Virus genome (UHGV): UHGV-0125821
Reading direction: 5' to 3' (one strand)
DNA length: 64,000 nucleotides
Source of the DNA: a virus
Shown one piece after another: positions 4,269 through 45,790 of this stretch (position 1 is the stretch's first letter; every line of letters starts with the position of its first letter). The notes beneath the pieces are model-generated. The model was given only the letters and a program-made list of their open reading frames with translations, was not told the origin of the DNA and did not search any database. The position numbers and the translations under genes are program-made.

Positions 4269-4376
4269 CGTTAGGTATTTAATATTAATTTTCTAATACA
4301 ATCATCTTTTTACCAGTCTATACAGTTTTAACATTCTCATTATCATCCCCTCGGTCATTTCCTGCCCGGGGGATTA

Positions 4377-4769
4377 ATGGAACAAATCAGCAGCGCAGAA
4401 ATTGCGGATATCATGATCAGGGCTGACTGCTATCTGACAGTCACTGAAATTACCACTCTCGCCAAAGAAAAATACCCTCATCTCCATGTTTCACGAGTAA
4501 GTGTAACTAACATCATTCGTCATTTTGTTCGTTCAAGCAGGGCAATCTGTGAGCTTGATGATCGTGTTTACCCACGAAAATACTGGTTGCATGGCCTGAA
4601 CGGATATCAGTTCAAGGTGCGTGGGCGAACCCCTGAATATGGCAGTTTACTGGTTAAAAACTGTAGCAGGAAATCAGTCGAACAGGCGCGAAAAGAGCAA
4701 CGAGAGCTGGTGGACATGGCGAATAAGCTGTGGAATGCCGCCGTTATAAAGCGTGGTGTTGCTTTATGA
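4377..4769 (+). CDS. hypothetical protein, Lpa-like by position upstream of terminase
   Basis: position only; stop overlaps pacA-like start (ATGA). Confidence 0.5.
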   Translation: MEQISSAEIADIMIRADCYLTVTEITTLAKEKYPHLHVSRVSVTNIIRHFVRSSRAICELDDRVYPRKYWLHGLNGYQFKVRGRTPEYGSLLVKNCSRKSVEQARKEQRELVDMANKLWNAAVIKRGVAL

Positions 4770-6130
4770 GTCTGGTTAATTGGGAGGAGCACCGCGCCCG
4801 CTTTATAGCGTTGCGTGAAGAAAAAGGGATCACTGTAAAGGAATACTGTGAGGAGCATGGCCTTAGCTTCAATACAGCCAGAAAGCATCTCAATATGAAA
4901 AAAAATGAGGTGCGGTCGCAGGTAAAGACAACAAAAAAAAGCACCAAATCACCTGAAAAAAAACGGGCGGGAAGAGCAACAAAAAAGCTGGAAGAGGGTG
5001 TAGAAAAAACAAAATTTACAGAAATTGACAATTCGCAGGGCGCAGGTTCTTTCCGAAGTATGCCGAGAAAGAAAACTTCGGATCATGAAAATAATTCAAA
5101 TAATAACAATAAGATAAAAGAATCTGTCAGGAGATCATTGCGCGAAAAAATGGCGAAAATGATCCCCGAAGAAGATAAAAACGCCCCAAAAATTGAGGGA
5201 TCTTCTGCAATGATCCATGACGGTGCTGTGCAGCGAGCCACATTGCCAACTACGAATGTGGCTCGCGATATGATGAAGAACGGCGCAGAAGAACACCTGC
5301 GGTTAGCAATTCAAATGGCGCAAGAGCGCGCACTTCAGTATCAAAGCATTGTTGATCAGGAGGCCGAACGTCTACAGGCGGAAATAGACGCCTTGGGCGA
5401 TAAAGAGCCAGAAGGAATGCACCCTGGGCAGCGCCTTCTCGGTCTAATCAGTGACGCGGCCTACTACATGAATGATTTTATCAGTAGGTTGGCAGCTATA
5501 TATCAGTCCGAACAAAAGCTGCGACAGGGGGATGAAAAGCTTCGTCAGAGCGCTCGCCAGCAAGCATTCAAAGAGGCTGAGGCCAGAGAAAAACTCGAAT
5601 TAGCACGCCTACAGGCCGAACAGCGTGGCAAAGAGATTGAATATCGCATTGGCGCTGACGCACGCGCAGCCAGAGTTATCGCCGCCGCTATACGTATGCG
5701 TGAGCGCGAGGAACTGGATGATATCGGTGTTGCTGAATACATCGAGCGCCAGGGTGTCAGCGTCCCGGCTATCCTCGCGGCGCGCGCGGCGAAAGCTATC
5801 ACTCTTCTCGAACCACCTGTTTCTGACGTCAATGATGTTGATGATGAACAGCTGGACAAAGAGGCAAGGGAGTTTGCAACGCTTCAGGCTAACCATCCGC
5901 AATGGCTGGCAGAGCGCCGGGCGGATGTGGCAACCATTGTTGAAGAATTGGGGTGCGGAGATTACGACCGCAATGGCGAGCGTAAAGCTGGAGAATTCGA
6001 GGCCAACGACGAAGAGCTGGATATTGACCCTTCGGCAACGGCTGAAATTTACGGTGATTATGATGCATCTGATGCAGGGTATGACGCCGGAGATGATGAT
6101 ATCGCGATAGAACCGCCGGAGGATGATTAA
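4766..6130 (+). CDS. pacA: terminase small subunit (PacA-like)
   Basis: precedes and is translationally coupled to large terminase; N-terminal HTH-like region, acidic C-terminus; start moved to ATG 4766. Confidence 0.65.
   Translation: MSLVNWEEHRARFIALREEKGITVKEYCEEHGLSFNTARKHLNMKKNEVRSQVKTTKKSTKSPEKKRAGRATKKLEEGVEKTKFTEIDNSQGAGSFRSMPRKKTSDHENNSNNNNKIKESVRRSLREKMAKMIPEEDKNAPKIEGSSAMIHDGAVQRATLPTTNVARDMMKNGAEEHLRLAIQMAQERALQYQSIVDQEAERLQAEIDALGDKEPEGMHPGQRLLGLISDAAYYMNDFISRLAAIYQSEQKLRQGDEKLRQSARQQAFKEAEAREKLELARLQAEQRGKEIEYRIGADARAARVIAAAIRMREREELDDIGVAEYIERQGVSVPAILAARAAKAITLLEPPVSDVNDVDDEQLDKEAREFATLQANHPQWLAERRADVATIVEELGCGDYDRNGERKAGEFEANDEELDIDPSATAEIYGDYDASDAGYDAGDDDIAIEPPEDD
5080..5217. 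other. candidate pac site: five GATC-containing hexamers in 136 bp
   Basis: GATC at 5081, 5134, 5162, 5200, 5213 inside 5-prime part of pacA-like gene. Confidence 0.4.
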
Positions 6131-7638
6131 TGGCTGGCGGGCGCAAGATTAAATGCGTCACCAGAGATCCACGCTGGCGCGATATGGTAATCAAATACCG
6201 CTACAACTTTACCCAGGCTGTTGTCGATATTTTTGGGATGTTCCCCTCCCAGCAGCAGCAGCAGATCATTCAGTCCGTACAGGAAACGGGGAGTAGGACT
6301 ACCGTCACGTCCGGACACGGAACGGGGAAGTCGTCCCTTACCGCGATGTTGCTGTTGATTTTTATGATCCTGTTCCCCGATGCCCGTGTCATCATTGTTG
6401 CTAACAAGATAGGCCAGGTAAAAACAGGCGTATTCAAATACGTTAAACAGTATTGGGCGAATGCAGTTAAGCGTCATGGGTGGTTGCAGACCTATTTTGT
6501 CCTCTCTGACACCATGTTTTATGAGCGCTCCCGTAAGGGGATTTGGGAAGTTCTCTGCAAAGGTTATCGACTCGGCAACGAAGAAGCGCTGGCGGGGGAA
6601 CACGCGGCACATTTGCTTCTAATTCTGGATGAAGCATCTGGTATATCTGATAAGGCGATCGGCGTAATGACCGGTGCTCTTACTGAAGAAGATAACCGGA
6701 TGTTGATGCTATCCCAGCCAACAAGGCCAAGTGGTTATTTCTACGATTCGCACCATTCTCGAGCAAAAACCCCAGACAACCCGAAAGGGATCTGGACAGC
6801 AATTGTTCTTAACTCGGAAGAATCACCGTTCGTCACACCACAATTCATCAAGGAGAAGCTTCTGGAATATGGCGGGCGCGATTCTATTGAGTACATGGTC
6901 AAGGTGCTTGGTCAGTTCCCACGAGAAATTAACGGCTATTTGCTTGGTCGTGATGAATGCGATCGCGCTGCTCGCCGCAAGGTGTTGTTGGAGAAAAACT
7001 GGGGATGGGTGGCAACGGCTGACGTTGGTAATGGGCGAGATAAGTCGGTCCTCAACATCTGCAAGGTATCAGGTCACAGGGATAAGCGGCGCGTTGTTAA
7101 CTTTAAGGTAATGGAGATGCCTGGCACTATGGACCCATTGGCCTTTGCTGACTTCATATATAACGAATGTACGCCGGAAAAATACCCGAATATAACAATC
7201 GCGGTTGATGCTGATGGTTTTGGTTCTGATACGTGTGCGCAGTTGGTGCGTCGTGGTGCGAACCCGGTACGTATTCGGTGGGGAAAACCCATGTTTGCGA
7301 ACAAAGACAGGGAGCGATTTGTTAATCAGCGTGCCTACGCAAATATTATGGCGCGTGATGCCATAAAGTCAGGGCGTATGCGGATAGACAGTGACCCTAA
7401 AACGGCAGAGCAAGCGTCAAAAATCCCCTTTTTACTGAATGAAGAAGGGAAAATGGCGATGATGCGCAAAGAGCACATGCGGCAAAAGCTAAACATCAAA
7501 TCGCCTGACCGATGGGATACCTACTGCTTCACTATGCTGGTGGACTATGTGCCTGCTAATGAAGATATTGGTGCCGAAATGGCAACTTTCCGAGATCAGG
7601 TTCTGGCGGATATCGAAATGCCGGATCTGGATATATAA
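6130..7638 (+). CDS. pacB: terminase large subunit (PacB-like)
   Basis: Walker A GHGTGKS, Walker B-like LLILDEA, nuclease-like C-terminal half. Confidence 0.75.
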   Translation: MAGGRKIKCVTRDPRWRDMVIKYRYNFTQAVVDIFGMFPSQQQQQIIQSVQETGSRTTVTSGHGTGKSSLTAMLLLIFMILFPDARVIIVANKIGQVKTGVFKYVKQYWANAVKRHGWLQTYFVLSDTMFYERSRKGIWEVLCKGYRLGNEEALAGEHAAHLLLILDEASGISDKAIGVMTGALTEEDNRMLMLSQPTRPSGYFYDSHHSRAKTPDNPKGIWTAIVLNSEESPFVTPQFIKEKLLEYGGRDSIEYMVKVLGQFPREINGYLLGRDECDRAARRKVLLEKNWGWVATADVGNGRDKSVLNICKVSGHRDKRRVVNFKVMEMPGTMDPLAFADFIYNECTPEKYPNITIAVDADGFGSDTCAQLVRRGANPVRIRWGKPMFANKDRERFVNQRAYANIMARDAIKSGRMRIDSDPKTAEQASKIPFLLNEEGKMAMMRKEHMRQKLNIKSPDRWDTYCFTMLVDYVPANEDIGAEMATFRDQVLADIEMPDLDI

Positions 7639-7665
7639 AGCCCCGCGATGCGGGGCCGGTTGTGA

Positions 7666-8703
7666 TTACCAGAGCTTCGCGGCGTACTGCGTTTGGGGGA
7701 ATGTGTATCCGTAACGTTCTTCGATTGCTTTGCCGTATTTTTTACGAGCTTCATTCAGTTTAATGCCGGTCAGGTCGTCTCCAGAGGCCATCATTACGTC
7801 TAACAATTCCAGATCCATTTTATCCAGCCTTGCCATTGCTTCACGTGATGTACGTATCTTACGCTCAATGATATGGCGAATAGCCGGATCGGCATCCTCC
7901 AGCATCTTAGCGGATTTCTGCTTAAGGCTTTCATTGCGAATATCGATGTTCCTTAAGATGTACGACTTCGCAACGTAGCTTGGCTGGTGTTTTTCCAGGT
8001 CACGAACACGATATAAGTTAAAATCGCCGAGAAGGCTGCAAGGTACCGATTCGACGCCAGAATAAATTGTAATGCTCCGGCGTTCACCAACATTATTGAC
8101 AACGGGGATCGTTGTCTTCGGTAGTCTTGCGAAAACCAATGCACCATGTGCGCCAACTCTAAAGCGAGAAAGGGCATTGCTGCCTTCGATGTTTGTTGTC
8201 AGCACAACATCTGTATATGCCTCTTTACGCGCCCGGTAGATCTCGCCTTCAGGCTCAGCTTCAAAGAAGCGCTGTTCTTCTTCAAGATCGCCTACGATTT
8301 GAGAAAAAACCCTATTTTTCAGGCTTTTCTTTATGATTTTGTCGTATTTTTTTAGCAATTGTTCACGTGTAAATGTACGTGTTGTTGTAGCGCTTTGCAC
8401 AACGACATGCGTGCTTTGATTGGTGTCCTCAATGATGAATGGGATCGGAGAATATACAGACTCAACAATGTTCGACGCTTTGCCGTCGGCATCGCGGCAC
8501 ATGTCAACGAAGGCTTTCCATTCAGCAAGACATTTTTCAGCTTCTTCTAATATGTTTTGGTCATGCGTTAATGCAACATGGCGGAATTCCTCGCCAGCAT
8601 AACTGGTATCATGGAAAACAGAGTTTGCGACCACCAGCTCTTTCCACCGTTCAGCGGTTTGCAGGAACCGTTTGTACTCTTTCTCGATCGACTTCTTACT
8701 CAT
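7666..8703 (-). CDS. hypothetical 345-aa protein at the position of the P1 c1 repressor
   Basis: antisense between pacB-like and rox/dre; operator-like motif 20 bp upstream of its start; function not established. Confidence 0.6.
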   Translation of the reverse strand: MSKKSIEKEYKRFLQTAERWKELVVANSVFHDTSYAGEEFRHVALTHDQNILEEAEKCLAEWKAFVDMCRDADGKASNIVESVYSPIPFIIEDTNQSTHVVVQSATTTRTFTREQLLKKYDKIIKKSLKNRVFSQIVGDLEEEQRFFEAEPEGEIYRARKEAYTDVVLTTNIEGSNALSRFRVGAHGALVFARLPKTTIPVVNNVGERRSITIYSGVESVPCSLLGDFNLYRVRDLEKHQPSYVAKSYILRNIDIRNESLKQKSAKMLEDADPAIRHIIERKIRTSREAMARLDKMDLELLDVMMASGDDLTGIKLNEARKKYGKAIEERYGYTFPQTQYAAKLW

Positions 8704-8718
8704 TATTCCTACTCGATT

Positions 8719-8738
8719 TAGTTTTCTAACATAAAATT
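8719..8738. promoter_or_regulatory. operator-like motif copy
   Basis: TTATGTTAGAAAACTAAATC on minus strand. Confidence 0.45.
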
Positions 8739-8914
8739 ACTATGACAAATTTATGTCGAATAACAGAGTGAGTAAAGGATCGAACTGTGATTTTTTGTCA
8801 TCAATTTTAGAAAACCAACCGTAGAAACCACACTTCGCAAATTAAAGACCATGAAGGCAACGTGTTACTGGTCATCATCAATCTATGATGGGTTAAAAAA
8901 AAATCGGCATTTTA

Positions 8915-8946
8915 TAACTTTAAATAATTGGCATTATTTAAAGTTA
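8915..8946. other. rox-like recombination site
   Basis: TAACTTTAAATAATTGGCATTATTTAAAGTTA; reverse complement equals the rox sequence as I recall it. Confidence 0.85.
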
Positions 8947-8955
8947 GGCTATAAT
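8928..8955 (+). promoter_or_regulatory. sigma70-like promoter overlapping rox
   Basis: -35 TTGGCA (8928-8933), 16-bp spacer, -10 TATAAT (8950-8955), pointing toward dre. Confidence 0.45.
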
Positions 8956-9098: not shown

Positions 9099-10127
9099 AT
9101 GAGTGAATTGATTATCTCTGGCAGTTCCGGTGGTTTTCTGCGCAACATTGGCAAAGAGTACCAGGAAGCCGCAGAAAACTTTATGCGGTTCATGAATGAC
9201 CAGGGGGCTTATGCGCCGAATACTCTGCGCGACCTCCGGTTGGTGTTTCATTCCTGGGCGCGCTGGTGTCACGCTCGCCAGCTTGCCTGGTTTCCGATCT
9301 CACCAGAAATGGCCCGCGAGTATTTTCTTCAGTTGCATGATGCCGATCTGGCTTCGACCACCATTGATAAGCACTACGCCATGCTTAACATGCTGCTTTC
9401 TCATTGTGGCCTTCCGCCACTTTCGGATGATAAAAGTGTTTCTCTGGCTATGCGGCGTATCCGGCGCGAAGCGGCAACGGAAAAAGGCGAACGAACAGGC
9501 CAGGCTATACCGCTGCGATGGGACGACCTGAAACTGCTCGACGTCCTGTTGTCCAGGTCAGAACGGCTGGTGGACCTGCGCAACCGGGCTTTTCTCTTTG
9601 TTGCATACAATACGCTGATGCGTATGTCGGAAATCTCGCGTATTCGTGTAGGAGATCTGGACCAAACAGGTGACACCGTCACGCTACATATTTCACACAC
9701 GAAGACAATAACGACCGCCGCCGGGCTTGATAAGGTGCTTTCCCGTCGCACTACTGCTGTGCTGAATGACTGGCTGGATGTTTCCGGGCTTCGTGAACAT
9801 CCTGACGCGGTGCTGTTCCCGCCGATACACCGTAGCAATAAGGCCAGGATTACGACAACGCCCCTTACTGCACCTGCAATGGAGAAAATATTCAGCGACG
9901 CCTGGGTGTTGCTGAATAAAAGGGATGCCGCGCCAAACAAAGGGAGATACCGGACGTGGACCGGGCATAGTGCTCGTGTCGGGGCCGCTATCGATATGGC
10001 TGAAAAGCAGGTGTCTATGGTGGAGATCATGCAGGAAGGAACCTGGAAGAAACCGGAAACACTTATGCGGTATCTGCGCCGTGGCGGTGTGTCTGTGGGG
10101 GCTAATAGCCGCTTGATGGATTCGTAG
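9099..10127 (+). CDS. dre: Cre-family tyrosine recombinase (Dre-like)
   Basis: blocks shared with Cre from memory: SWARWC, WFP, AYNTLMRMSEISRIRV, WTGHSARVGAAIDMA. Confidence 0.9.
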   Translation: MSELIISGSSGGFLRNIGKEYQEAAENFMRFMNDQGAYAPNTLRDLRLVFHSWARWCHARQLAWFPISPEMAREYFLQLHDADLASTTIDKHYAMLNMLLSHCGLPPLSDDKSVSLAMRRIRREAATEKGERTGQAIPLRWDDLKLLDVLLSRSERLVDLRNRAFLFVAYNTLMRMSEISRIRVGDLDQTGDTVTLHISHTKTITTAAGLDKVLSRRTTAVLNDWLDVSGLREHPDAVLFPPIHRSNKARITTTPLTAPAMEKIFSDAWVLLNKRDAAPNKGRYRTWTGHSARVGAAIDMAEKQVSMVEIMQEGTWKKPETLMRYLRRGGVSVGANSRLMDS

Positions 10128-10130
10128 ATT

Positions 10131-10148
10131 AAATTTCTAACACATCTT
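10131..10148. promoter_or_regulatory. operator-like motif copy
   Basis: GATGTGTTAGAAATTT on minus strand, just after dre stop. Confidence 0.45.
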
Positions 10149-13786: not shown

Positions 13787-14209
13787 TTAAGCAGAATAAG
13801 TGGTTGGAATTCTGAGCAGTAATCCAATCTTGGCTATGTGTGCATATGGCAGCTCTCCGGTTTTACCATCATGTATCGAGGCTATCAGATTCAATTCTTG
13901 CGCCGCTTTACGAATTTCAGTTTCTGATGGAACAAGGCGAAAACCGGTGTGTAACATTTTGATATAGAAAGGTAATAGTTCGTACTTCACCCGTAACTGT
14001 GCTGCCGCATCTTTCAAATCATGGATGATTTCTTGTTTTAAGTCAGAGCGGGGATTCGATAGCTTTGCTTGGTTAGACAATAACAGATGCGATATTTCCC
14101 CCAACTGTTCCTTGAATGAAATGTAAGACTCAACCCCCTTGATGATGAGTCGACCTAGGACAAAAACGCTTACTCCAGTGACAACAGTGACAAAAGCAGA
14201 CGAACTCAT
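13787..14209 (-). CDS. membrane-anchored hypothetical protein (N-terminal TM helix)
   Basis: 140 aa, hydrophobic N-terminus; lies between humD and phd-doc. Confidence 0.55.
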   Translation of the reverse strand: MSSSAFVTVVTGVSVFVLGRLIIKGVESYISFKEQLGEISHLLLSNQAKLSNPRSDLKQEIIHDLKDAAAQLRVKYELLPFYIKMLHTGFRLVPSETEIRKAAQELNLIASIHDGKTGELPYAHIAKIGLLLRIPTTYSA

Positions 14210-14343
14210 TCGCGTACCTAAAAAGAGAATTATAACCTCATCTTATCTTCAAGTGAGTAACCGCGTCTAATGGGAGGAATCATTTAAATGGCCAGGGCGA
14301 TATAGAGCCAGTCATGCCTCTCTATGGTTTCTCTGAAAACAAA

Positions 14344-14733
14344 TCATATAGCAGGACTATCATCAAATTCACCGCCCCTGGCGTCATTGATAATGTGGGT
14401 GATCACACCAAAAACAGCATTACTACCCGTGTAACCATCGTCATCTACTGGTAACGCCTCTTTCTTCCCGGTGCTTAAATCCTCCAGGTGCTGGCGCGGA
14501 TACTTCCGGTATCTTTTTACGCGATATTCCCCCTCCATAGCGCATATAAGCAGTGAGCCATCAACCGGAGTAAGTGAGGAATCAACCACCAGCAAAGCAC
14601 CTTGCAATATTCCCTCACGGTGATGGCTGTCTGCCGCCCGCATGAAGTAGGTCGCTGAAGGATGTCTGATTAGTTGCTGATCAAGAGAAATACGGCTCTC
14701 TGCATAATCCGCCGCAGGAGAAGGGAAGCCCAT
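14344..14733 (-). CDS. humD: UmuD-prime-like protein
   Basis: GFPSPAADY...HPSATYF...FGV(I/V)xH core of UmuD C-terminal domain, no N-terminal cleavage arm. Confidence 0.8.
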   Translation of the reverse strand: MGFPSPAADYAESRISLDQQLIRHPSATYFMRAADSHHREGILQGALLVVDSSLTPVDGSLLICAMEGEYRVKRYRKYPRQHLEDLSTGKKEALPVDDDGYTGSNAVFGVITHIINDARGGEFDDSPAI

Positions 14734-14751
14734 AGCGTTTTACCTCAATGA

Positions 14752-14771
14752 TACTGTTTATTCATACAGTA
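14752..14771. promoter_or_regulatory. LexA box
   Basis: TACTGTTTATTCATACAGTA (CTGT-N8-ACAG) about 20 bp upstream of humD start. Confidence 0.6.
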
Positions 14772-14832
14772 TACATTGAAAAGGCATAGTTTGTGAAAGC
14801 GGGGTTTGCAGGCGCGCCACGCTGGGGGCTAA

Positions 14833-15225
14833 TCACATTGGTGGCGTGAACTTGCCATTCATATATTGCAAAATGCTTGACTCAATTTTTTCATTAAAAT
14901 CAGAATGATGCTCCTCAAGGACAAAGCGCGCCTTATTGTTGCGCACAATAACCTCCGCCAACGGACTAACCAGAGATGTGGAGTTAGAGATTTTCTCGGC
15001 GCGCTCTACATCGCTTTTAAACGTTACGATGAAGTGCTGGTGGCCTGGTGACCGGCGACACAACATGCGTCGCACTTCCACGGTATCTTCACGGCCTTGA
15101 GTATGTACAGGAAAGCTATCGACCACCGCTGTATTGGTGCGGATTGTCTGCATAGAACGCGTGTTGTCGTGATAGTTAAGCATGTTTAATGTCTTCCCCA
15201 TCTTGCCGTTATTTTCTTGGTGCAT
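14833..15225 (-). CDS. hypothetical protein
   Basis: ORF between humD and hot. Confidence 0.55.
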
Positions 15226-15460
15226 CCTCGTTCTGATACACCGGATGGCTCCCTTTTGGCAACTGGAGGCTTAACTGCCGGTAGTGCCGTAACCGTTCCA
15301 TGAAATAGGTGCGCAGGTTCTCTGGTTGCTCGCGGGCTACCTGTTCAGCCATGACAGGTATGTTCAATCGCTCTTTGTACGCCACACCGCTGGCAGCCAG
15401 ATCAACGTTAACCTTATCCCGTTCTTCCTGACTTTTAGCTGCAATATTCCAGTCGCTCAT
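15209..15460 (-). CDS. hot: DNA polymerase III theta-subunit homolog
   Basis: [36 protein letters not shown] closely parallels HolE. Confidence 0.8.
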
Positions 15461-15462
15461 AT

Positions 15463-15735
15463 TTAAGGCTCACATTTCCAGATGGTATTCTGAACACCCG
15501 AACCGGGCGCAAGATTAGGGTTAGCGTTCGCGCTATGCTGATATACTGCTTTAGACTTCCCATATTGCTGACAGGCTTTATCTGCGGTTTTTTGCAGGCT
15601 ATCCAGGCCATACCAACCATCTGACTGTATGCTTACCTTTTCACCGTCGTTGTATTGCACCATTGCACACCCAGATATAGCCAGTATCGCGCCGACAATA
15701 ACGCTTTTCCATAAAACTCTATGCAACATATACAA
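15463..15735 (-). CDS. small lipoprotein
   Basis: signal peptide with lipobox ISGC. Confidence 0.55.
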
Positions 15736-15774
15736 AAATCCCCTCTGTGAATTGAGGGGATTTTAGCATGGTGA

Positions 15775-16605
15775 TCAGATATCGGCCTTATTCGGAATTT
15801 TATCAGCCACCAGCGGCAATAAAGCCTTCGCCATTTCATGAACCAACATGGCATCAATGACGCCTAGCGTATGGCCCGGCTTAATCTTTAATGCGGCCTC
15901 AAGATAGCCTCTTTCCAGAGTGGTTTTTACGCTTTTCTTGGGCGATTGTTGGGAACTATCCGGAAAATCCGGATGGTTGCCAGCCAGTCTACGCAAAACG
16001 GCCTTAACAGCCTCAATACGGTCATCATCGCAATTTTCCAGCGTATCTATGCGGTCGAGCATGATGATTGCGTTATCAATATCAGGATTGCCGGTCCACT
16101 CATTACCGCGATTGGATTCGGCAGCATGGTTGCCGCGTACTGGTTGATTCTCGGCTTTACCCTGTCTGTCGTCGCTGCATGAATGCCCTTCCAGCCAGGC
16201 CAATGCTTGTCGCATGAAATACGCAATATGTTTGCCGTGGTAATCGTCTTCATCGATGTGAAAAGCGATACTGCGGATGTATTCAATTGCGTTTTCAATG
16301 GCCTCCGGCGTTATCGGCGCTGGCGGTGCGGTATAAAACTTCGTCCCCAACGGCAACAACTTCATCGCTTTTTCTCCCTTAATGATGCGATAAGTTGATT
16401 TCCCGCCAAGGTCTACCGTCCCATCCATAACAAGGCCATGTTGCTTCTCTGAAACTTCACCAATAGGCTCTGCTTCCAGCGATGTCAGCGCAATCCGCGC
16501 CAGTTCTTCCGCTTCTTCTGCTGGCAGTACAACGTTGCTACCAGGTCCGTATGTTTCGCGCCACTGCTTGATTGTCAGTAGTCGCTCTTTGGTTATAGTG
16601 GTCAT
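15775..16605 (-). CDS. hypothetical protein
   Basis: 276-aa ORF. Confidence 0.6.
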   Translation of the reverse strand: MTTITKERLLTIKQWRETYGPGSNVVLPAEEAEELARIALTSLEAEPIGEVSEKQHGLVMDGTVDLGGKSTYRIIKGEKAMKLLPLGTKFYTAPPAPITPEAIENAIEYIRSIAFHIDEDDYHGKHIAYFMRQALAWLEGHSCSDDRQGKAENQPVRGNHAAESNRGNEWTGNPDIDNAIIMLDRIDTLENCDDDRIEAVKAVLRRLAGNHPDFPDSSQQSPKKSVKTTLERGYLEAALKIKPGHTLGVIDAMLVHEMAKALLPLVADKIPNKADI

Positions 16606-16883
16606 TTGTTAACCCTCAAAACTTTATGCCCGGGCGCAAAAGCACGCGTTTTGTCTTTGCTTATTCGCCAGCCATCCTTGCGCGCCTCTTTTGCACAGCC
16701 AGCCCATGACGTACCTATATACTCACCGAAGTCTGGCACTGGATATACACCTTCCGTGCACTGACGGCAGTCACAATAGAGATGCATGGTGTAACTTGCA
16801 GCGATAGCCATATCACTCTCCTTTAGTACGCAAGTGGTTTTTCCAGCGGTTTTGCGCCGCGCTGGGCTTTTTGCAAAAACCAC
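16602..16883 (-). CDS. hypothetical Cys-rich protein
   Basis: 93 aa with CDCRQC and other Cys. Confidence 0.45.
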   Translation of the reverse strand: MVFAKSPARRKTAGKTTCVLKESDMAIAASYTMHLYCDCRQCTEGVYPVPDFGEYIGTSWAGCAKEARKDGWRISKDKTRAFAPGHKVLRVNK

Positions 16884-16987
16884 AATCCATCATCCCGTAA
16901 TGTTTCATTAACCCCATCCGTCGGTTGCTGAGTCTCACCCACTGCCAGACGCCAGGAGCGTTTCTACGAACTAACAGAATCTTTGCT

Positions 16988-17740
16988 TTACGGTTTTTCA
17001 TCGTTTTGCTCTCCTGCGTCTCCTTTGATGCAAATGCCAGCGACGCATGGCACATTAACTTCCACGATGCGCACAGTTGGTTTGTACATCTCAATCGCTG
17101 TCAGCCAGTCAGCGCCAGTCATGCGCTTTTCTGCATCGCCATTAGTCCACTTAACCGGTACACCAATAGCCTTCATCGCGATTTCTATTTCCCCGGCGAT
17201 GGCGCTTTTTCCGCAACCAGTAAAACCAGAAACAACGACAAGAACTTCACCTTTGGCTGGTTTTATTTCCCGTGCTTCCAGTTCTGCAATGCGCTTCTCT
17301 GCGGCTTCCAGCTTCTCGCGCATATCGTCAACGTACTCGACCAGAGAACCGCCAGCAGGAATTTCGCACTCCTCGACCAGTTGGAAGTAGATATCAGCTG
17401 CGGCCCGTGTGTTGCTATGCCTAGCGTCGCCCATCTCACCTTCACGAAGAGCATCGCGTTCGGCGGTAAGATTGGCTATTTTGCTGTCTTTGCCTTCCAG
17501 CTCAACACGCAGCTTCCCTACCGTTAGCGCAATATCCTCGTTCTCCTGATCGCGGCTTTTGATGTATTGCAGGTTTCTTTCCCGTTCATCCAACAATGCC
17601 AGCGCGATATCTGGCGAAAAGTGCTTCATAAAATCGTTAAGCGCATTAATTCGCTGATCGAAAGGCATTACAGGTGCTTCACCAGCAATTTTTGTTTTTT
17701 CAGCGATTTCACGAAGCTTTTGATAATCAATCTTGCTCAC
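16988..17740 (-). CDS. Ea22-like family protein
   Basis: N-terminus SKIDYQKLRE, LLDERERNLQYIKSRDQENEDIALTVGKLRVEL block; GTG start overlapping upstream stop. Confidence 0.65.
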   Translation of the reverse strand: MSKIDYQKLREIAEKTKIAGEAPVMPFDQRINALNDFMKHFSPDIALALLDERERNLQYIKSRDQENEDIALTVGKLRVELEGKDSKIANLTAERDALREGEMGDARHSNTRAAADIYFQLVEECEIPAGGSLVEYVDDMREKLEAAEKRIAELEAREIKPAKGEVLVVVSGFTGCGKSAIAGEIEIAMKAIGVPVKWTNGDAEKRMTGADWLTAIEMYKPTVRIVEVNVPCVAGICIKGDAGEQNDEKP

Positions 17741-18381
17741 TGGTTGCCTCCTTTGCGAAGCTGCTCCGCACAATGCAGCAGGGCGTCCGTCGCTTCTTTC
17801 ACCGTAACGATGTCGCCATCGTCCAGCCCGGCAACCGTCGCGTCCTTAACGAACACCGAGCAAAGGTCATTAAACGCCTGCGCACGTACTTCAGCCAGGA
17901 GAGCGTCGGTGACCGGAGTTTCAGGAATCCGTCTCCTCATCCGTTCTATTGCATGATTGAACCCGAAATCTTCAGCAAGAGATACGTCATCCATATTGTC
18001 ATTGTCGTCCTCAATATCCCGTGGTTCTGGAATTGCAGACTTTATTACCGCATTCTCCGCTGCTAGCGCCGCGCACTTGGCCTCAAGAGCGGCAACCACT
18101 TCCTGATGGTCTTTGTACTTAACGTATGAGCCGGAGATGTCATCACCTTCGGTGTTTAGCCATGCGTCATTGCAATTCACTGCGTAGGTTCTGATGCTCA
18201 TGCTGATGCTCTCCCGCCCCTGACAGACGCCAGGCCAGTCAATAAAGTATCCGCAATGCCTACCCTCAGACGTGCGCGCAGGATAAATGCCGTTATGACC
18301 CGGCAAAATATATGCTACCCATTCATCTTGCGTTGCCTGTTTCGCCGCCTCGCGCAGTTCTTTATAGTTAATTTCGCTCAC
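17737..18381 (-). CDS. Ea22-like family protein
   Basis: N-terminus MSEINYKELRE, C-terminus LRKGGNQ; GTG start overlapping upstream stop. Confidence 0.65.
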   Translation of the reverse strand: MSEINYKELREAAKQATQDEWVAYILPGHNGIYPARTSEGRHCGYFIDWPGVCQGRESISMSIRTYAVNCNDAWLNTEGDDISGSYVKYKDHQEVVAALEAKCAALAAENAVIKSAIPEPRDIEDDNDNMDDVSLAEDFGFNHAIERMRRRIPETPVTDALLAEVRAQAFNDLCSVFVKDATVAGLDDGDIVTVKEATDALLHCAEQLRKGGNQ

Positions 18382-18617
18382 TGGTTGCCTCCTTTACGGA
18401 TCTGCGCTGCGATGCGCGAAAAAAAAGACTCCCGCGTATGACTGTTAAGAGCTGGCGCGAACGCTGCGTTAAGAACAGCAGCATCACAGCCGTCATCAAT
18501 ATAGAGCGCAATTTTTTTCTCCAGGCGCGCTTTGGCTTCCTGCAACTGCATACCCCGGCACGCACGCGGGATATAATCAGCAATTTGAGCGATAGCCTTT
18601 TCGTTCTGTTTAAACAT
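18378..18617 (-). CDS. hypothetical protein carrying the RKGGNQ C-terminal module
   Basis: 79 aa ending IRKGGNQ. Confidence 0.5.
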   Translation of the reverse strand: MFKQNEKAIAQIADYIPRACRGMQLQEAKARLEKKIALYIDDGCDAAVLNAAFAPALNSHTRESFFSRIAAQIRKGGNQ

Positions 18618-18813
18618 GCTTCACCTCGATAGGCTTGATGGTGTCTAACAGCAGTCGACGGCGCGTATTTTCTGCAAAGTGGCGGCGTCCGGTATCTTTG
18701 TGGTAAAACTCATTTTTGCCGACGACCCACATCCGCTCTGTTTGGTGCAGTTTTTTTACCTGCGGACCGTCTTTGGTGATCACGGTGCCGGTATGGGTTT
18801 TTACGATTGTCAT
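18610..18813 (-). CDS. hypothetical protein
   Basis: 67-aa ORF. Confidence 0.45.
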   Translation of the reverse strand: MTIVKTHTGTVITKDGPQVKKLHQTERMWVVGKNEFYHKDTGRRHFAENTRRRLLLDTIKPIEVKHV

Positions 18814-18896
18814 GCCACTACCTCTTCGAACAGATGAACGAGACAGGCCGATGCTCGTCCACCTAAAAAGCTGACGACTTGATGCATACTCACGGT

Positions 18897-19589
18897 TTAT
18901 TCCTGAATGCGCTTAAACTCAATTACCCATACCCACGGGTTAGATAGCCAGTTATCCTGCCCGTAAATACTGCGCCAGATATCACCAAAACCAACGCGAT
19001 AAACAGCTTCCGGCGGTGTAATTTTGTACATCGCCGGAGATGCGCCTTCTGCTTTAGCATCTGCCTCGCTCATATCACGCAGCCGTTCCACACGCACGTC
19101 GGTAATTTCCAGCAAAATGCGCGATGCCCAGCGCGGCATGTGAATTGATGGACACCACCCGCCATCAAATTTTTCATTCACAGTGTGAGGTTTCCAGTCG
19201 GCATCATCGGGTATCGACCACAAGCCGTAATCACCCGGCTTTTGCTCACAACTGGCCCGATAAATCCTTGCTGCGTTCTTCTCATCGCCACGACAAAGGT
19301 TGTCGTTCCAGTCCACACTGCAACCATCCTCATTGCCTAATATCGCCCACGCCTCACGGACCCATATGCGATCACCAACGTTACCGAACGGGCATAAACC
19401 ATGTTCAGGTGCATCCATAACGTGGGTATAGACACCATTGCGTTTCTTTGTCGGTTTACGGATAACCAGGCAGTTATCGGCCCTGACATTTTTTACAGGT
19501 CGGCGAGTCTGCGTCTTCCTTCCTTCGAGGATGGCCCTGACCATCTCATCGTTAAAAATCATCCCGCGTTCTTTCATTTTTTGATCCAC
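18897..19589 (-). CDS. hypothetical protein, ASCH/PUA-like N-terminus
   Basis: MIFNDEMVRAILEGRKTQTRR pattern; start codon uncertain. Confidence 0.55.
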   Translation of the reverse strand: MDQKMKERGMIFNDEMVRAILEGRKTQTRRPVKNVRADNCLVIRKPTKKRNGVYTHVMDAPEHGLCPFGNVGDRIWVREAWAILGNEDGCSVDWNDNLCRGDEKNAARIYRASCEQKPGDYGLWSIPDDADWKPHTVNEKFDGGWCPSIHMPRWASRILLEITDVRVERLRDMSEADAKAEGASPAMYKITPPEAVYRVGFGDIWRSIYGQDNWLSNPWVWVIEFKRIQE

Positions 19590-19593
19590 CTCA

Positions 19594-20589
19594 TCAGTTA
19601 TTGAAAGTGATCACTCCGCGCTCGATGGCGAAGTCAAAAAGCTGGTTAGCGGCTACGTAAAGGCGTATGCCATGTGCTTTTTCCCATGCCCGAACATCGT
19701 TTTCTGCGCTTCTGGCGCAGTCATCGCAAAGAGGAACAGCCCAGCGGTCGTGTTCGTTTAACGAGCGGGCGCGGTACATGAACGGGTGGTTAACTTTGCC
19801 ACCGCATCCGATGCACGGACGAGAAACCACAAACCGGAGATAAGCCGGGCTTTTACCGAGGACCGCTTTTGGTCGGCGCATATAAAGCAGACCGGAATCC
19901 TCATCTACAGACAGGTTGACGATCTGCTCTGCGGTTATGTCCACCAGCTCACGGGTGCTGTGCTCCCAGGTGATATCTGATTCTTTCAGCGTACCGGTAG
20001 GGATTTCAGTTTTTGGCTGACAAAATGCAATGCGACCGGCTTCATCTGGCAGCTCATCTTTCAGATTCCGGCGAATGGCCCAAAAAGTGAGTTCAACCAT
20101 GCTCAGATCGCGTTCTGGCGGTAGTTTTAACTCGCTCGCAGCCCAGTTCATAACCCAGTTGGCACGATTCAGGGATAACTGGTCGTCCAGCTTGCTGTAC
20201 CCCTTCATCATGTATTCCGCATCATGCTTCCAGCACAGGCGAACGGCAGAGCCGTTATAGAAATGGGTGGTTAGCTGGTGGCTGCAATCGCGCTTATCGT
20301 GCGCCTGGCAATCGTGGATATTGGAACTTACCCAATGAACAAGCGAATCTTCACCGCCCAACGCGTTAAATACGCGCTCGCTTTGAAAAAACGGTTTCAG
20401 AGACTGGTTGGCAACCAGCGAATAATTCAGATCCACTACGCCATCTGGCGTGTTTTCAGCCTGTTCACGCGGAAGTGGGGAGATAATGAAACGGCGACCT
20501 GCGCCAATGTAGTTGCTGGTGGGCTTGTCTACCGGAAAGACAGCCACACCAGCTCCGTTTACGAAATGAGGTGTGATTATTGCACTCAT
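19594..20589 (-). CDS. hypothetical protein with C-terminal Cys/His cluster (possible DUF968-like)
   Basis: CIGCGGKVNH ... CDDCA near C-terminus. Confidence 0.55.
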   Translation of the reverse strand: MSAIITPHFVNGAGVAVFPVDKPTSNYIGAGRRFIISPLPREQAENTPDGVVDLNYSLVANQSLKPFFQSERVFNALGGEDSLVHWVSSNIHDCQAHDKRDCSHQLTTHFYNGSAVRLCWKHDAEYMMKGYSKLDDQLSLNRANWVMNWAASELKLPPERDLSMVELTFWAIRRNLKDELPDEAGRIAFCQPKTEIPTGTLKESDITWEHSTRELVDITAEQIVNLSVDEDSGLLYMRRPKAVLGKSPAYLRFVVSRPCIGCGGKVNHPFMYRARSLNEHDRWAVPLCDDCARSAENDVRAWEKAHGIRLYVAANQLFDFAIERGVITFNN

Positions 20590-20630
20590 AATGTATACCG
20601 ACTCTGTTTTGTTCCGAGCGGTAAAATAAT

Positions 20631-20667
20631 ATGTTAGAAAACTAAAATCAATGTTCTAACACATTTT
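20631..20667. promoter_or_regulatory. inverted pair of operator-like motifs
   Basis: ATGTTAGAAAACTAAAAT and TGTTCTAACACA facing each other. Confidence 0.5.
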
Positions 20668-20686
20668 GAGTGCGTAAATGATTTGA

Positions 20687-21367
20687 TCAGACTTTAAGCT
20701 GCCCTCCCTTCACCTGCATTAGCGTCAGATTTCCACAAAAAACCGCGCCCGTGTCTATGTAGTGCTGATTCCAGTATGCTTTTGGTCTTCGTACCGGTGT
20801 GTGCCCAAAGATAAAGCGATCTGCGCCTGTGATTTCTCCACCAATGCCATCTATCGAATCACCGACGCGACTGCGCGACCAGACAACATCAAAAAGCGAT
20901 ACATCCTTACCGAACTGGTACTCTCCACCTGGATAGTCGGCATGGGCTATAACGATAGTTTCATGTCCGGTGTTCAACTCAATGATATATGGCAGACGCT
21001 TTACCAGCTCCACCAGCGCCTTGGCTAATATTTCCTGATCAGTGTCCAGCATGAAGAACCATTGTCCGCCATTCATTAGCCAGTTATTCACGTTGCCATC
21101 TGGACTTAACGCATCAAGCATCAACCGCTCATGGTTCCCCATTACTGCCCTGAACCAGGGCATCTGCAATAGTTCCAGACATTCGACATTTTCAGTACCG
21201 CGATCGATAAGGTCGCCAACCGATATCAGTAAATCCTGCGCCGGGTCAAAATCCACACGATGGAGTTCGGACATCAGTCTGGTGTAGCAACCATGCAGAT
21301 CACCAACTACCCATATGTTTCTGTAGCCAGAACCATCAATACGGCTATATAAATTCACTTCATGCAT
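20687..21367 (-). CDS. Ser/Thr protein phosphatase (lambda PPase-like)
   Basis: GDLHG, GDLIDRG, GNHE motifs; start set at MHEVNLYS. Confidence 0.8.
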
Positions 21368-21375
21368 AGCTTGGA

Positions 21376-21687
21376 TCATGCGGCAACCTTCTCCCGCAGC
21401 CAGATACAAACTGGACCATCTTCAGTGTCATGAATAGAGCCAACAAACCAGCCTTCACCCTCTGGTCGCTCCGGTTCCCAGGCGGCAATATCGGGACCAG
21501 CTGCGTCCATATCAAAATCATCTTCATCCATACTGCGAATAGTCCACTGAAGATTATTTTCCTTCATCCAGGCGTCAAATTCCTCAGTGGAAATATATTC
21601 ACGACCTGCGCAAAACTTCTCATACTCCGGATGTGTCCAGCAGCCATATTCATCACGTTCTACCGGCATTTCTTTAATTGTGTTCAC
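21376..21687 (-). CDS. hypothetical protein
   Basis: 103-aa ORF. Confidence 0.5.
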
Positions 21688-21908
21688 TCTTCATCCTCCA
21701 AATCAGCAACCGCGTCCATCACATCAGAACCGCGAATAACTTCAAAAGCGCGGCAGGCCATTTGAAATACCCGTTGCTCTTGCGGGTGCGGAGACTCCCA
21801 ATATTTGAAGCCTGGGCGATGCGTGTACCCCATCATGGAATAAAAATCGCCAGCAAGTTCAATCGCGGCATCAACAAGTTCGCGATTTGTCATCGTCTGT
21901 TCTGTCAT
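21684..21908 (-). CDS. hypothetical protein
   Basis: 74-aa ORF. Confidence 0.45.
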   Translation of the reverse strand: MTEQTMTNRELVDAAIELAGDFYSMMGYTHRPGFKYWESPHPQEQRVFQMACRAFEVIRGSDVMDAVADLEDEE

Positions 21909-24906: not shown

Positions 24907-24953
24907 TTTTGATCAATCATAGAAAAATAGCTGAAAAGTAAGAGGCAGCCATC

Positions 24954-26160: not shown

Positions 26161-26345
26161 GTGTCATGCCATCGCACAGCCATACGTAGCGTTTAGCTCA
26201 GAGATCAATGGTAGTGCTGGCTGGGCTGCCGAAAGGCAGGCCGGTTCCCTTTTGCGCCGGTAGTTCCAACCCAGTCAGTGCTACCGCCATTGAGATTGGA
26301 ACCTCACGCGGTAGCTCCTTAAATTAGCAAAAGGAGGCTGCCAAT

Positions 26346-27871: not shown

Positions 27872-28163
27872 TTCATTAACTCCATACTTTACCATCTTAG
27901 CCGCGAGCGCGGTCCCTAAAACCCTTAACTTCACTGCACCGTCCTTCATGCAATCAAAATGACTTTTATGTTATAAAAATAATCAGCAAAATCAACATGA
28001 TTTAGGCCAAATTTCGGTCAAAAATAAAATCCACAAAAAGTGGTTGACACTATTTTGGAAATCACAAACTGCACATAATCCATCGCGCTAACGGCTCCCG
28101 TTGAAGGTTCTTTTGACGATTAACTTTCAGCCGAAGCGCGGTAGGGAGTCATAACGCCAAAGC

Positions 28164-29004: not shown

Positions 29005-29197
29005 GTCATTCACTCCGTTTAATTTTTAATCTAATGCCAGCAAATGAAGCTGGCCCCCGCATAAAGATTAATGAAAGTCACTTGTCACCAGTGAGGGGAT
29101 TTATGAACCACATCCCCCTGAACTGGTGGCCTGTCTGTTTCTCGCATTTCACACCCTGCATACAGTTTCCCCCAGGTTATGACTGAGAGGCTTTGTT

Positions 29198-35817: not shown

Positions 35818-35826
35818 AAAATGCAC

Positions 35827-35870
35827 CCATTTGTGTTAGATAATTAATATGTATTTTCTAACACAAATGG
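35827..35870. promoter_or_regulatory. palindromic operator pair
   Basis: CCATTTGTGTTAGA, 16-bp spacer, TCTAACACAAATGG; ends 7 bp before rdgC ATG. Confidence 0.55.
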
Positions 35871-35876
35871 TGAGAC

Positions 35877-38392: not shown

Positions 38393-40054
38393 TTAACCTA
38401 ACTTCGCCCAGGTATCACGCAGCCCAACGGTGCGGTTAAATACCGGTTTTTCCGCCGTAGAATGGCGGCTGTCGAGGCAGAAATAACCTTCACGCTCAAA
38501 CTGGAATGCTTTACCCGCTACCGCTTCTTTCAGCGACGGTTCAGCAAAACCCTGTTTGATCACCAGCGATTCCGGGTTAATCACCGACAGGAAATCATCC
38601 GCAGCACCTGGGTTCGGCACGCTGAACAGACGATCGTACAGGCGGATTTCAACCGGCAGCGCATGTGCCGCGCTCACCCAGTGAATAACGCCTTTCACTT
38701 TACGACCATCTGCCGGATCTTTGCTTAAGGTGTCGGCGTCATAAGTACAGAAGATGGTGGTGATATTGCCTTCGGCATCTTTCTCCACGCGTTCAGCCTT
38801 AATGACGTAAGCATTACGCAGACGCACTTCTTTACCCAGCACCAGACGTTTGTACTGCTTGTTAGCTTCTTCGCGGAAATCGGCGCGGTCGATCCAAATC
38901 TCACCGCTAAACGGCACCTGACGGCTACCCATTTCCGGTTTGTTCGGATGGTTCGGCATGGTGACCATTTCGCCTTCGCCCTGGTAGTTTTCGATAACCA
39001 GTTTCACCGGATCGATAACCGCCATTGCGCGCGGCGCATTTTCGTTGAGATCTTCACGGATGCAGGATTCCAGCGACGCCATCTCAATGGTGTTGTCCTG
39101 CTTGGTCACGCCGATGCGTTTGCAGAACTCACGAATAGAAGCCGCAGTGTAACCACGACGACGCAGACCGGAAATGGTCGGCATACGCGGGTCATCCCAG
39201 CCTTCAACGTGCTTGTCGGTCACCAGCAGGTTCAGCTTACGCTTGGACATCACGGTGTATTCCAGATTCAGGCGCGAGAATTCGTACTGGCGCGGGTGAA
39301 CAGGAATGGTGATGTTGTCCAGCACCCAGTCGTACAGGCGACGGTTGTCCTGGAACTCAAGCGTACACAGAGAGTGCGTAATACCTTCCAGCGCATCGCT
39401 GATGCAATGGGTGAAGTCGTACATCGGGTAGATGCACCACTTGTTGCCAGTCTGGTGGTGTTCAGCAAATTTAATGCGGTACAGCACCGGATCGCGCATT
39501 ACGATAAATGGCGACGCCATGTCGATTTTCGCACGCAGGCAGGCTTTACCTTCTTCAAAACCACCGGTACGCATTTTTTCGAACAGCGCCAGGTTCTCTT
39601 CAACGCTGCGGTCGCGGTACGGGCTGTTTTTACCCGGCTGCGTCAGGGTGCCGCGGTATTCGCGGATCTGTTCCGGCGTCAGTTCATCAACGTACGCCAG
39701 GCCTTTATTGATCAGTTCGATCGCATAGGCGTGGAGCTGATCAAAATAATCGGAGGAGTAACGGACGTTACCAGACCAGTGAAAACCTAACCACTCAACG
39801 TCGTTTTTGATCGACTCAACATACTCGATATCTTCTTTTACCGGGTTAGTGTCGTCGAAACGCAGGTTGCACTGGCCTTTATAGTCCTGGGCGATCCCGA
39901 AGTTCAGGCAGATAGATTTCGCATGACCAATATGCAGATAGCCATTCGGTTCCGGCGGGAAACGGGTATGTACTGTGGTGTGCTTACCACTGGCCAGATC
40001 TTCATCGATGATCTGACGAATAAAGTTAGTCGGGCGGGCTTCTGCCTCACTCAT
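38393..40054 (-). CDS. glnS: glutaminyl-tRNA synthetase
   Basis: 553 aa essentially identical to enterobacterial GlnS as recalled; last residues read KLG. Confidence 0.95.
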
Positions 40055-44889: not shown

Positions 44890-45335
44890 AGCCAGATGTC
44901 CTGGCTGTCAGCTTCTTCGAAACCGTGACAGACGTTAAAGTCACTCAAACGATACTGACGCTGACGGCCCCTATTTCGCTCATGCCAATGCATATATCCA
45001 CCAGCAAATGCCAGCGGACAATCGCTATAGTCTATGTAACCAATACCATTCCCCAAACGTGCTTCGCGCGCACCAGCTTTCCAGGACAGTAGAAAAGAGT
45101 CACGATCCGCCAGCATAACAACAAAATCGTCCGGATCTCCGATACAGTGAAGAATACCAGCCTTACATAACTGCTTGAGCGCTTTTGACTGGCTCAGGAT
45201 GTCTTCTCCGTAATACTGAAAACAATCATCAACAACAGCGGGATAGCCTGTCGGGGGATTCAGGCTGGCTGGTATAGCTGACGCGATCGCCAGCATTAAG
45301 CGATATTGTGTTTTTGATGGGTTAACGTGACTCAT
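44877..45335 (-). CDS. hypothetical protein
   Basis: 152-aa ORF. Confidence 0.55.
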   Translation of the reverse strand: MSHVNPSKTQYRLMLAIASAIPASLNPPTGYPAVVDDCFQYYGEDILSQSKALKQLCKAGILHCIGDPDDFVVMLADRDSFLLSWKAGAREARLGNGIGYIDYSDCPLAFAGGYMHWHERNRGRQRQYRLSDFNVCHGFEEADSQDIWLQEP

Positions 45336-45351
45336 TTTGTCCCTTGTTTAC

Positions 45352-45744
45352 TCATTGTCGCCATGCATTTTTTAACTCAGGAATATCTGCCATTTCAATT
45401 AACTTGCGAAGTCCAGCACTGACTTTCCCATTGCCAACCATAGCAAGCCAATCTCTTACAGCTTTCGGCATGTAGAGCGTTGCAGTTACCGGCTCTTCAA
45501 CCCTGGCAGGACATCCGCATACAGGCCATTTAATTGATTCCATAACTTCGGATGCCGGGGTGAGGGCGGGGACATTGAGTATATCTCTACCAGAAAACTG
45601 GATAACGATCCGTTCAGCGAGCGAGAGTATCTCACTTTCGGCAAGAATTGATGCCAACTGCGCCTCAACAAGAAAGCGACTTGTTGTGTTCAGAGAGTGG
45701 CTCTTAGCGCCATTTTTATACGAAACAAAGATTCGATACGCCAT
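45352..45744 (-). CDS. hypothetical protein
   Basis: 130-aa ORF. Confidence 0.55.
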   Translation of the reverse strand: MAYRIFVSYKNGAKSHSLNTTSRFLVEAQLASILAESEILSLAERIVIQFSGRDILNVPALTPASEVMESIKWPVCGCPARVEEPVTATLYMPKAVRDWLAMVGNGKVSAGLRKLIEMADIPELKNAWRQ

Positions 45745-45764
45745 AACTCTAATGATTTGTGTTA

Positions 45765-45790
45765 GAAAACTAAAATTAAATCACATAACA
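45765..45790. promoter_or_regulatory. operator-like motif copy
   Basis: TTTGTGTTAGAAAACTAAAATTAAATC between divergent genes. Confidence 0.5.

Follow-up and report, generated by a model that had tools for sequence, protein, structure and literature searches.

The C1 immunity repressor of bacteriophage P1 has 22 dispersed operators, which share an asymmetric 17-bp consensus, ATTGCTCTAATAAATTT (PMC8546580). Escherichia phage D6 (NC_050154) is a plasmid prophage and a distant relative of P1. Here we examine a 64,000-nucleotide stretch of viral DNA, UHGV virus genome UHGV-0125821 (the whole stretch is called the window below), which represents a D6-like phage-plasmid: in megablast searches with 20 kb of the window, D6 was 96.5% identical, with 98% of the query aligned, and a plasmid of E. 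coli matched at 99.5% identity. By local blastn the window is collinear with D6 from position 8516 down to 1 and then from 91159 down to 36363, save for a few replaced or deleted segments, and the gene names used here are carried over from the D6 annotation. We suggest, from sequence comparison and by analogy with P1, that a short motif scattered over the window very probably represents the operators of the element's own C1-family immunity repressor, the product of the gene at 7666-8703. The operator set would most likely be a diverged version of the P1 C1-operator system that silences the lytic genes of the D6-like plasmid prophage.

An earlier note, made from the sequence alone, had picked out copies of this motif at intergenic sites and had proposed that they mark the immunity-repressor regulon. 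Every copy that it listed was found where it had been placed, and the copy near 4290, which it had taken for a weaker variant, scores 28.7 bits, on par with the other sites. Aligned on the pentamer TTAGA, the copies carry information from -4 to +14 and give a 19-bp asymmetric consensus, T(G/A)TGTTAGAAAA(C/T)TAAWNT, ten strong copies of which are spread over eight loci in 41 kb of the window. The core TGTTAGAAAAC with at most one mismatch is matched 7 times against 1.18 expected, a count reached by none of 100 shuffles. When up to three mismatches are allowed, the 19-mer is found 5 times where 0.04 would be expected. With a 20-column position weight matrix (PWM), the ten sites score 25-31 bits (17.8-29.3 when each is left out of the matrix in turn) and the next best match 15.0 bits. 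A PWM scan with shuffled controls, which the earlier note had put forward as a check, gave 11 matches of at least 14 bits, whereas 200 shuffles that preserve dinucleotides average 0.22.

All eight loci are intergenic, as had been claimed, although the window is 89% coding by a greedy map of open reading frames (ORFs) (P about 2e-8); the sole incursions into genes are overlaps with two stop codons, by 2 and 7 bases. When intergenic 9-mers were searched without bias for over-representation, GTTAGAAAA came out on top in the window, and the same search, used as a control of the method, put the known C1 operator first in P1. Enrichment of 10-mers over the whole sequence was swamped by Chi sites and coding bias; it was the restriction to intergenic DNA that worked. 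Among the other top intergenic words, TTGCCCTCA is the repA iteron and the rest are noise.

The copies follow a fixed geometry. Four of the eight loci are convergent pairs, 34-bp imperfect palindromes in which the TTAGA anchors lie exactly 25 bp apart and the two sites overlap by 4 bp; the other four (8715-8733, 10126-10144, 25526-25544 and 45758-45776) are single asymmetric sites. Two of the pairs combine a strong site with a weak partner, and from the rarity of matches of at least 7.6 bits we estimate the chance of finding two weak partners at the exact offset at about 3e-7. Pairs with this 25-bp spacing are also seen in D6, in a plasmid of Shigella dysenteriae and in the E. coli plasmid NZ_CP085065.

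The earlier note had likened the motif to the scattered asymmetric C1 operators of P1, and position bears the likeness out: the sites, asymmetric, dispersed and sometimes bivalent, stand at loci where the P1 GenBank record, our source for P1 operator positions, annotates operators. The site immediately upstream of c1 is equivalent to Oc1, that upstream of lpa to Olpa, and that upstream of ref to Oref; the site overlapping the ref stop codon matches Omat, which also lies on the ref stop codon in P1. The site upstream of hrdC-dmt corresponds to Odmt, upstream of uhr-hrdC-dmt, and the pair just downstream of ppp to OpmgRa/b, downstream of ppp-pmgQ. Further equivalents lie in the part of D6 outside the window: a site at D6 21274, upstream of a c4-icd-ant module (Oc4), one at 22469, upstream of repL (OrepL), and two at pmgR/pmgS, at 9080 and 10329 (again OpmgRa/b). 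The whole D6 genome contains 15 strong sites, all of them intergenic or overlapping only a stop codon.

The TTAGA core, in which the earlier note had heard an echo of the P1 operator, is indeed common to both, being part of the ATTAGAGCAAT found in the reverse complement of the P1 consensus ATTGCTCTAATAAATTT; the rest of that consensus is unmatched. With a PWM built from the operators of P1, which themselves score 15.6-28.1 bits, no match in the window exceeds 12.3 bits, and the D6 PWM has no match of at least 12 bits in the 94.8 kb of P1. The motif thus points to an immunity specificity other than that of P1/P7. The accessory factors of the P1 system also differ, in that tblastn finds no homologs of P1 Lxc, Coi, ImcA/B or C8 in D6 or the window at an E value of 0.01 or better. 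Lxc was likewise not detected in a D6-like plasmid by others (PMC6799933).

The motif is kept where the repressor is kept. NZ_CP085065, whose C1 is 80% identical to that of the window, and the S. dysenteriae plasmid (C1 69.5% identical) have the motif at the same loci and in the same 25-bp pairs. Between the window and the latter element, the operator columns are 85-89% identical as against 51-75% for the rest of the same intergenic regions. In 41 kb of the Salmonella Typhi plasmid pK91 (NZ_CP029871) there are exactly two matches to the D6 PWM, at the c1-upstream and dre-end positions; pK91 thus keeps c1 with its flanking sites, the rest of the D6 backbone being absent from the 41 kb examined. 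This plasmid is a conjugative IncFIB multiresistance plasmid (qnrS1, blaTEM-1, sul2, tetA), and its positions 14000-21900 are a D6-like fragment with an intact c1 (68% identical) and dre, in which IS26 cuts inside pacB. In IMG/VR the exact degenerate 19-mer was found in 41 stretches, 36 of which align to D6; the other five are unrelated singletons.

When the repressor belongs to another clade, the motif changes as well. The D6 PWM has no match of at least 12 bits in the Leclercia adecarboxylata plasmid pE1_003. That plasmid and a plasmid of Citrobacter portucalensis, both devoid of the D6 motif, encode C1 proteins 28-30% identical to the window's and have a dispersed motif of their own, aAAAagCCTTAGAATCTat, at the c1-upstream, cre-end and ref-upstream loci in both and at the capsid-upstream position in Leclercia too. 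P1 carries ATTGCTCTAAT, and TTAGA is common to the P1, D6-type and Leclercia/Citrobacter motifs. A site stands immediately upstream of c1 in every clade examined. Loci that are conserved while their sequence changes with the repressor clade provide the strongest computational support for reading the motif as operators of an immunity repressor, and the regulon proposed in the earlier note is supported by the enrichment, the P1-equivalent loci, the conservation and the restriction of the motif to elements with a D6-type C1.

For the repressor itself, the earlier note had offered the 7666-8703 product as a first guess, and this protein proves to be a clear, if remote, homolog of C1. The gene, D6 orf1, lies on the minus strand and is annotated in D6 as 'prophage repressor, similar to P1 C1'; it sits between pacB and rox/dre, the same genomic place as c1 in P1. 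Its product, of 345 amino acids, is 21% identical to P1 C1 over 268 residues (BLASTP, E = 1e-8), and both proteins match PHROG 1678 (4.9e-170 and 2.6e-140, respectively). Sequence searches gave it no Pfam match and no relative in the PDB. Compared with P1 C1 it has a C-terminal extension of about 60 residues, which it shares with the Leclercia-type protein. This type of C1 was found by tblastn in 149 PLSDB plasmids; a search of genome contigs with a C1 alignment returned only four loci, of P1 type.

The individual sites are described below with the promoter-like hexamers near them, which come from a relaxed scan and whose overlaps with the sites are tentative. Upstream of lpa (4377-4769, plus strand), which encodes an Lpa homolog (Pfam PF25716, 5e-56), a convergent pair occupies 4267-4300, with a strong half on the minus strand (4282-4300, anchor 4296, 28.7 bits) and a weak one on the plus strand (4267-4285, anchor 4271, 10.6 bits). 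Both halves are strong in NZ_CP085065, at 23.2 and 20.9 bits.

The single candidate operator at 8715-8733 (minus strand; 26.4 bits, 21.8 leave-one-out) lies 12 bp upstream of the c1 start codon, and by analogy with P1 we infer that it is the predicted site of c1 autoregulation. In the S. dysenteriae plasmid it stands out as a conserved block, with 89% identity compared with 64% for the rest of the region, and a site occurs at this position also in pK91 and NZ_CP085065. A promoter-like TTTACT-17-TAAATT (8776 to 8748), itself conserved in the S. dysenteriae plasmid, would place the site at about +8 to +26. Between c1 and rox there is a doubtful, degenerate site at 8803-8821 (plus strand; 15.0 bits, -0.3 leave-one-out); this extra core match (8805-8815) fails the leave-one-out test, and the S. 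dysenteriae plasmid keeps the TTTAGAAAACC core of the site. The adjoining gene for the Cre-like Dre recombinase (9099-10127, plus strand; named in the D6 annotation, with rox at about 8930) is faced by a near-consensus sigma-70 promoter-like sequence, TTGGCA-16-TATAAT (11 of 12 matches), at 8928-8955, on rox. At its other end, a single site at 10126-10144 (minus strand, 27.0 bits) overlaps the stop codon of this cre/dre-like gene and lies upstream of the orf117...dut operon. The position is occupied in D6, the S. dysenteriae plasmid, pK91 and NZ_CP085065, and in Leclercia and Citrobacter by the clade-specific motif.

Between the stop of ppp and the pdcB-like gene (start codon at 20589), a bivalent site at 20630-20663 combines two strong halves, 20630-20648 on the plus strand (anchor 20634, 29.0 bits) and 20645-20663 on the minus strand (anchor 20659, 25.1 bits). 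It is conserved in three relatives, and a promoter-like TTGATT-17-TATTTT on the minus strand has its -35 hexamer at the dyad. The bivalent site at 24874-24907, which separates the divergent orf88 operon and ref (24954-25532, plus strand), has a strong plus-strand half (24874-24892, anchor 24878, 29.8 bits) and a weak right half on the minus strand (anchor 24903, 7.6 bits). In the S. dysenteriae plasmid the right half is strong as well (25.4 and 26.3 bits for the pair), and in comparison with that plasmid the operator columns are 88% identical and the flanks 51%. Two promoter-like sequences lie back to back, one with TTGAAT facing ref and the other with TTGATT facing the orf88 operon, and each has its -35 hexamer at this dyad.

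A single site at 25526-25544 (minus strand, 27.8 bits) overlaps the stop codon of ref, ahead of small ORFs, isrK and the C4 antisense RNA (immI). It contains the -10 of a promoter-like TTGAAT-16-TAACAT (25516-25543, plus strand) directed toward isrK and the C4 RNA, which Rfam places at 26079-26157 and 26204-26291, in the immI region. Just downstream of the C4 RNA, at about 26500, a segment corresponding to D6 73681-75023 is missing from the window. With icd truncated at residue 56 and both the gene for a Rha-type antirepressor and the start of pmgF deleted, the window copy of the immI module appears, from its sequence, to be disabled.

The bivalent site at 35832-35865 lies 12 bp upstream of hrdC, which starts at 35877 and is followed by the dmt genes. 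Its halves, 35832-35850 on the plus strand (anchor 35836, 28.7 bits) and 35847-35865 on the minus strand (anchor 35861, 26.1 bits), are both strong, and the arms 35827-35840 and 35857-35870 are perfect 14-bp inverted repeats. A promoter-like TAGAAA-18-GATAAT has its -10 inside the left half-site. Lastly, a single site at 45758-45776 (plus strand, 30.6 bits) lies 14 bp from the start codon of orf52 (45744, minus strand) and 127 bp upstream of gene 23, which encodes the major capsid protein (45903-47600). This is the best consensus match of all and is also present in D6; in the Leclercia element the equivalent position upstream of the capsid gene is occupied by that element's own motif.

On the P1 analogy, the repressor would bind each 19-bp asymmetric site in the plasmid-prophage state, and at four loci would bind two convergent sites with cores 25 bp apart. 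Once bound, it would block RNA polymerase at promoters overlapping or abutting the sites. The targets in the window would be c1 itself (autoregulation), lpa, ref together with the divergent orf88-ppp operon, the pdcB-like operon and hrdC-dmt, and further the operon downstream of dre/cre, the immI region with its C4 RNA and the orf52/gene 23 region; in the remainder of D6 they would include repL, the second c4-icd-ant module and pmgR/S. With lpa repressed, the late-gene activator would not be made and the late genes would stay off. Some of the promoter-like hexamers on which this scheme draws are conserved in relatives.

Several observations weigh against assigning the motif to C1. A stricter promoter scan called no promoter at most of the sites, and the top promoter prediction for lpa (4319-4346) falls on the downstream side of the lpa pair, with no overlap. 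The homology to P1 C1 is remote, given the 21% identity and a score of 25.9 bits against the NCBIfam model phage_rep_C1, whose cutoff is 500; falling below that cutoff, the protein is to be regarded as a distant member of the C1 family and not as a C1 equivalog. One site, that upstream of gene 23, is near a late gene. Nor does orientation help, as the D6 and P1 consensus sequences match at 9-10 of 17 positions in both orientations and the orientations of syntenic sites conflict. Finally, the link between C1 and the motif is itself inferred, and the element encodes several other putative DNA-binding proteins, any of which might conceivably co-vary with c1.

This last point leads to the alternative that fares best, namely that the sites are bound by another regulator, either a different DNA-binding protein of the element (for example, one of helix-turn-helix or Rha/Ant type) or a host factor. 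We consider it unlikely. A host factor is improbable because the motif is absent from P1, which has the same host, and changes with the C1 clade. As to another element-encoded protein, the constant presence of a site just upstream of c1 and the retention of c1 with its flanking sites in pK91 tie the motif to the repressor gene, and the site positions equal those of experimentally defined P1 C1 operators. The motif has no match to the LexA box; the pattern of the SOS box, CTGT-N8-ACAG, is absent from it, and we rejected LexA as its identity. The sole LexA-like box in the window, TACTGTTTATTCATACAGTA, a good match at 14752-14771, stands just upstream of a humD/umuD-like gene (14344-14733, minus strand), and the P1 LexA site occupies the equivalent position.

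A second alternative is that the copies are late promoters dependent on Lpa, composed of an activator box and a -10 such as TAAAAT. Late-promoter boxes of P1 resemble the motif in being short conserved elements that are dispersed in the same kind of genome and read by a protein encoded by the element; in several copies the 3' half resembles a -10 hexamer (TAAAAT, TAATAT), the element does encode an Lpa homolog, and one site lies upstream of the capsid gene. The P1 late promoters, however, have a 9-bp -22 box, AAGTGACTT, four to ten bases before the -10, to which the motif bears no resemblance, and the window has boxes of this P1 type at other positions, 29075-29091 ahead of gene 26 and 27957 ahead of mat. 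Of the eight loci, seven lie in front of early or immunity genes (c1, lpa itself, ref, hrdC-dmt), the structural block at 45.9-64 kb has no site of at least 12 bits, and convergent pairs, stop-codon overlaps and the lack of a fixed relation to a -10 do not suit a promoter element, all of which makes this explanation very improbable. The late box at 29075-29091, between the mat side and gene 26, is palindromic, AAGTCACTTGTCAC / AAGTGACTT; that upstream of mat, AAATGACTT at 27957-27980, is overlapped by a weak operator-like match at 27967-27985 (11.6 bits).

Equally hard to credit is the notion that the copies are non-regulatory repeats, such as remnants of mobile repeats, hairpin or terminator palindromes, or chance similarity of AT-rich DNA: the motif is AT-rich, as intergenic DNA is, and the palindrome at 35826-35871, right after gene 5, could fold as RNA (-20.5 kcal/mol), but the counts are not reached in dinucleotide-preserving shuffles, hairpins cannot form at the half of the loci that consist of one asymmetric site, the 20628-20665 pair folds weakly (-5.4 kcal/mol), no run of T follows the 35.8-kb hairpin, and the sites are conserved islands in diverged intergenic DNA, with a different motif at the same loci in another clade.

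Some further features of the window deserve mention. Segments without a blastn match to D6 lie at 1559-2763, 14809-15952, 17752-19591 and 58389-59013, one of them inside the region of the sit (tape-measure/transglycosylase) gene; by sequence comparison these are cargo or replacement modules, which set this element apart from the type phage. Four tRNA genes are found at 667-2845, Asn(gtt), Thr(tgt), Ser(tga) and a Met/Ile2-type (cat), the fourth (2770) just beyond the unmatched segment 1559-2763. The phage-plasmid also carries glnS, a full-length gene for glutaminyl-tRNA synthetase, at 38393-40054 (minus strand), which is annotated in D6 too. Chi sites, GCTGGTGG, are hugely over-represented, with 22 on the plus strand (e.g., 2685, 4139, 4706 ... 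56113) and 16 on the minus strand (8631 ... 44998) in the 64 kb, and 10-mers containing Chi are the top over-represented words in the window, in P1 and in two other relatives. Over-representation of Chi is a known property of P1. An iteron array at 54168-54267 consists of five tandem copies, each of about 22 bp, of GTGTAAGATTTGCCCTCA, with further copies scattered over 53097-53374, and the iterons (53097-54267) flank a repA-like ORF at 53380-54168 (minus strand). By analogy these repeats are presumably RepA-binding iterons comparable to incC/incA of P1.

D6-like phage-plasmids are common in E. coli and Salmonella, and they also occur as remnants in conjugative resistance plasmids such as pK91 of S. 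Typhi. A known operator lets annotators delimit the immunity regulon and helps to predict which elements are heteroimmune and therefore able to co-reside or superinfect; the operator set also helps to interpret deletions such as that of the icd-ant module in the window element. The reciprocal PWM scans suggest that the repressor/operator pair should be orthogonal to that of P1 C1, which would parallel Dre/rox and Cre/lox, recombination systems of these same phages. The C1-operator paradigm of P1 dates from the late 1980s and is textbook P1 biology, and since our finding conceptually only extends it, a specialist would not be surprised.

The D6 operator set and the TTAGA-core code set out below may not have been described before. 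The sites are unannotated in both D6 GenBank records, and neither the operator sequence of D6, nor the 25-bp pairing, nor the CCTTAGAATCT specificity of the Leclercia and Citrobacter elements was found in the literature searched, a scope that did not take in the two primary D6 papers, so that an earlier description is possible.

More tentatively than for the operator assignment, we propose from these comparisons that the C1 repressors of P1-like, D6-like and Leclercia/Citrobacter-type phage-plasmids may read an invariant TTAGA with clade-specific flanks, and that the D6-type system might be a streamlined, orthogonal version of the P1 switch. If such a code held, immunity groups could be read directly from sequence. 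A streamlined switch of this kind would operate without Lxc and Coi, the extra C-terminal domain of the repressor might take over cooperative or corepressor functions, and the 34-bp bivalent operators, with their fixed 25-bp spacing, would place a -35 hexamer at the dyad.

Among the systems with which the D6-type sites can be compared, the operators of lambdoid CI/Cro (OL, OR) are dyad-symmetric 17-bp sequences in two tripartite arrays that flank the repressor gene. The sites in the window, in contrast, are asymmetric and spread over more than 40 kb, four loci consist of a single site, and there is only one strong site near c1. What the two have in common, in the window by prediction only, is that immunity-repressor sites overlap promoters and that their specificity defines the immunity group. 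The CCTTAGAATCT-type sites of Leclercia and Citrobacter have the same architecture, several of the same loci, the TTAGA core and a C1 with the C-terminal extension; they differ in their flanks (an A-rich 5' side, then CCTTAGAATCT) and in a C1 that is only 28-30% identical. Relative to P1, the D6-type site is longer (about 19 bp rather than 17), a bivalent operator, its cores 25 bp apart, takes up 34 bp as against 28 bp for P1 Obanab, and the repressor has its C-terminal extension. In the remaining respects the arrangement is that of the ImmC system of P1 (and P7): one repressor with many sites scattered round a plasmid prophage of about 90 kb, operators that are asymmetric, dispersed and not clustered, both single and bivalent (inverted and overlapping), and a repressor homolog encoded beside pacB and a lox/rox-recombinase module.

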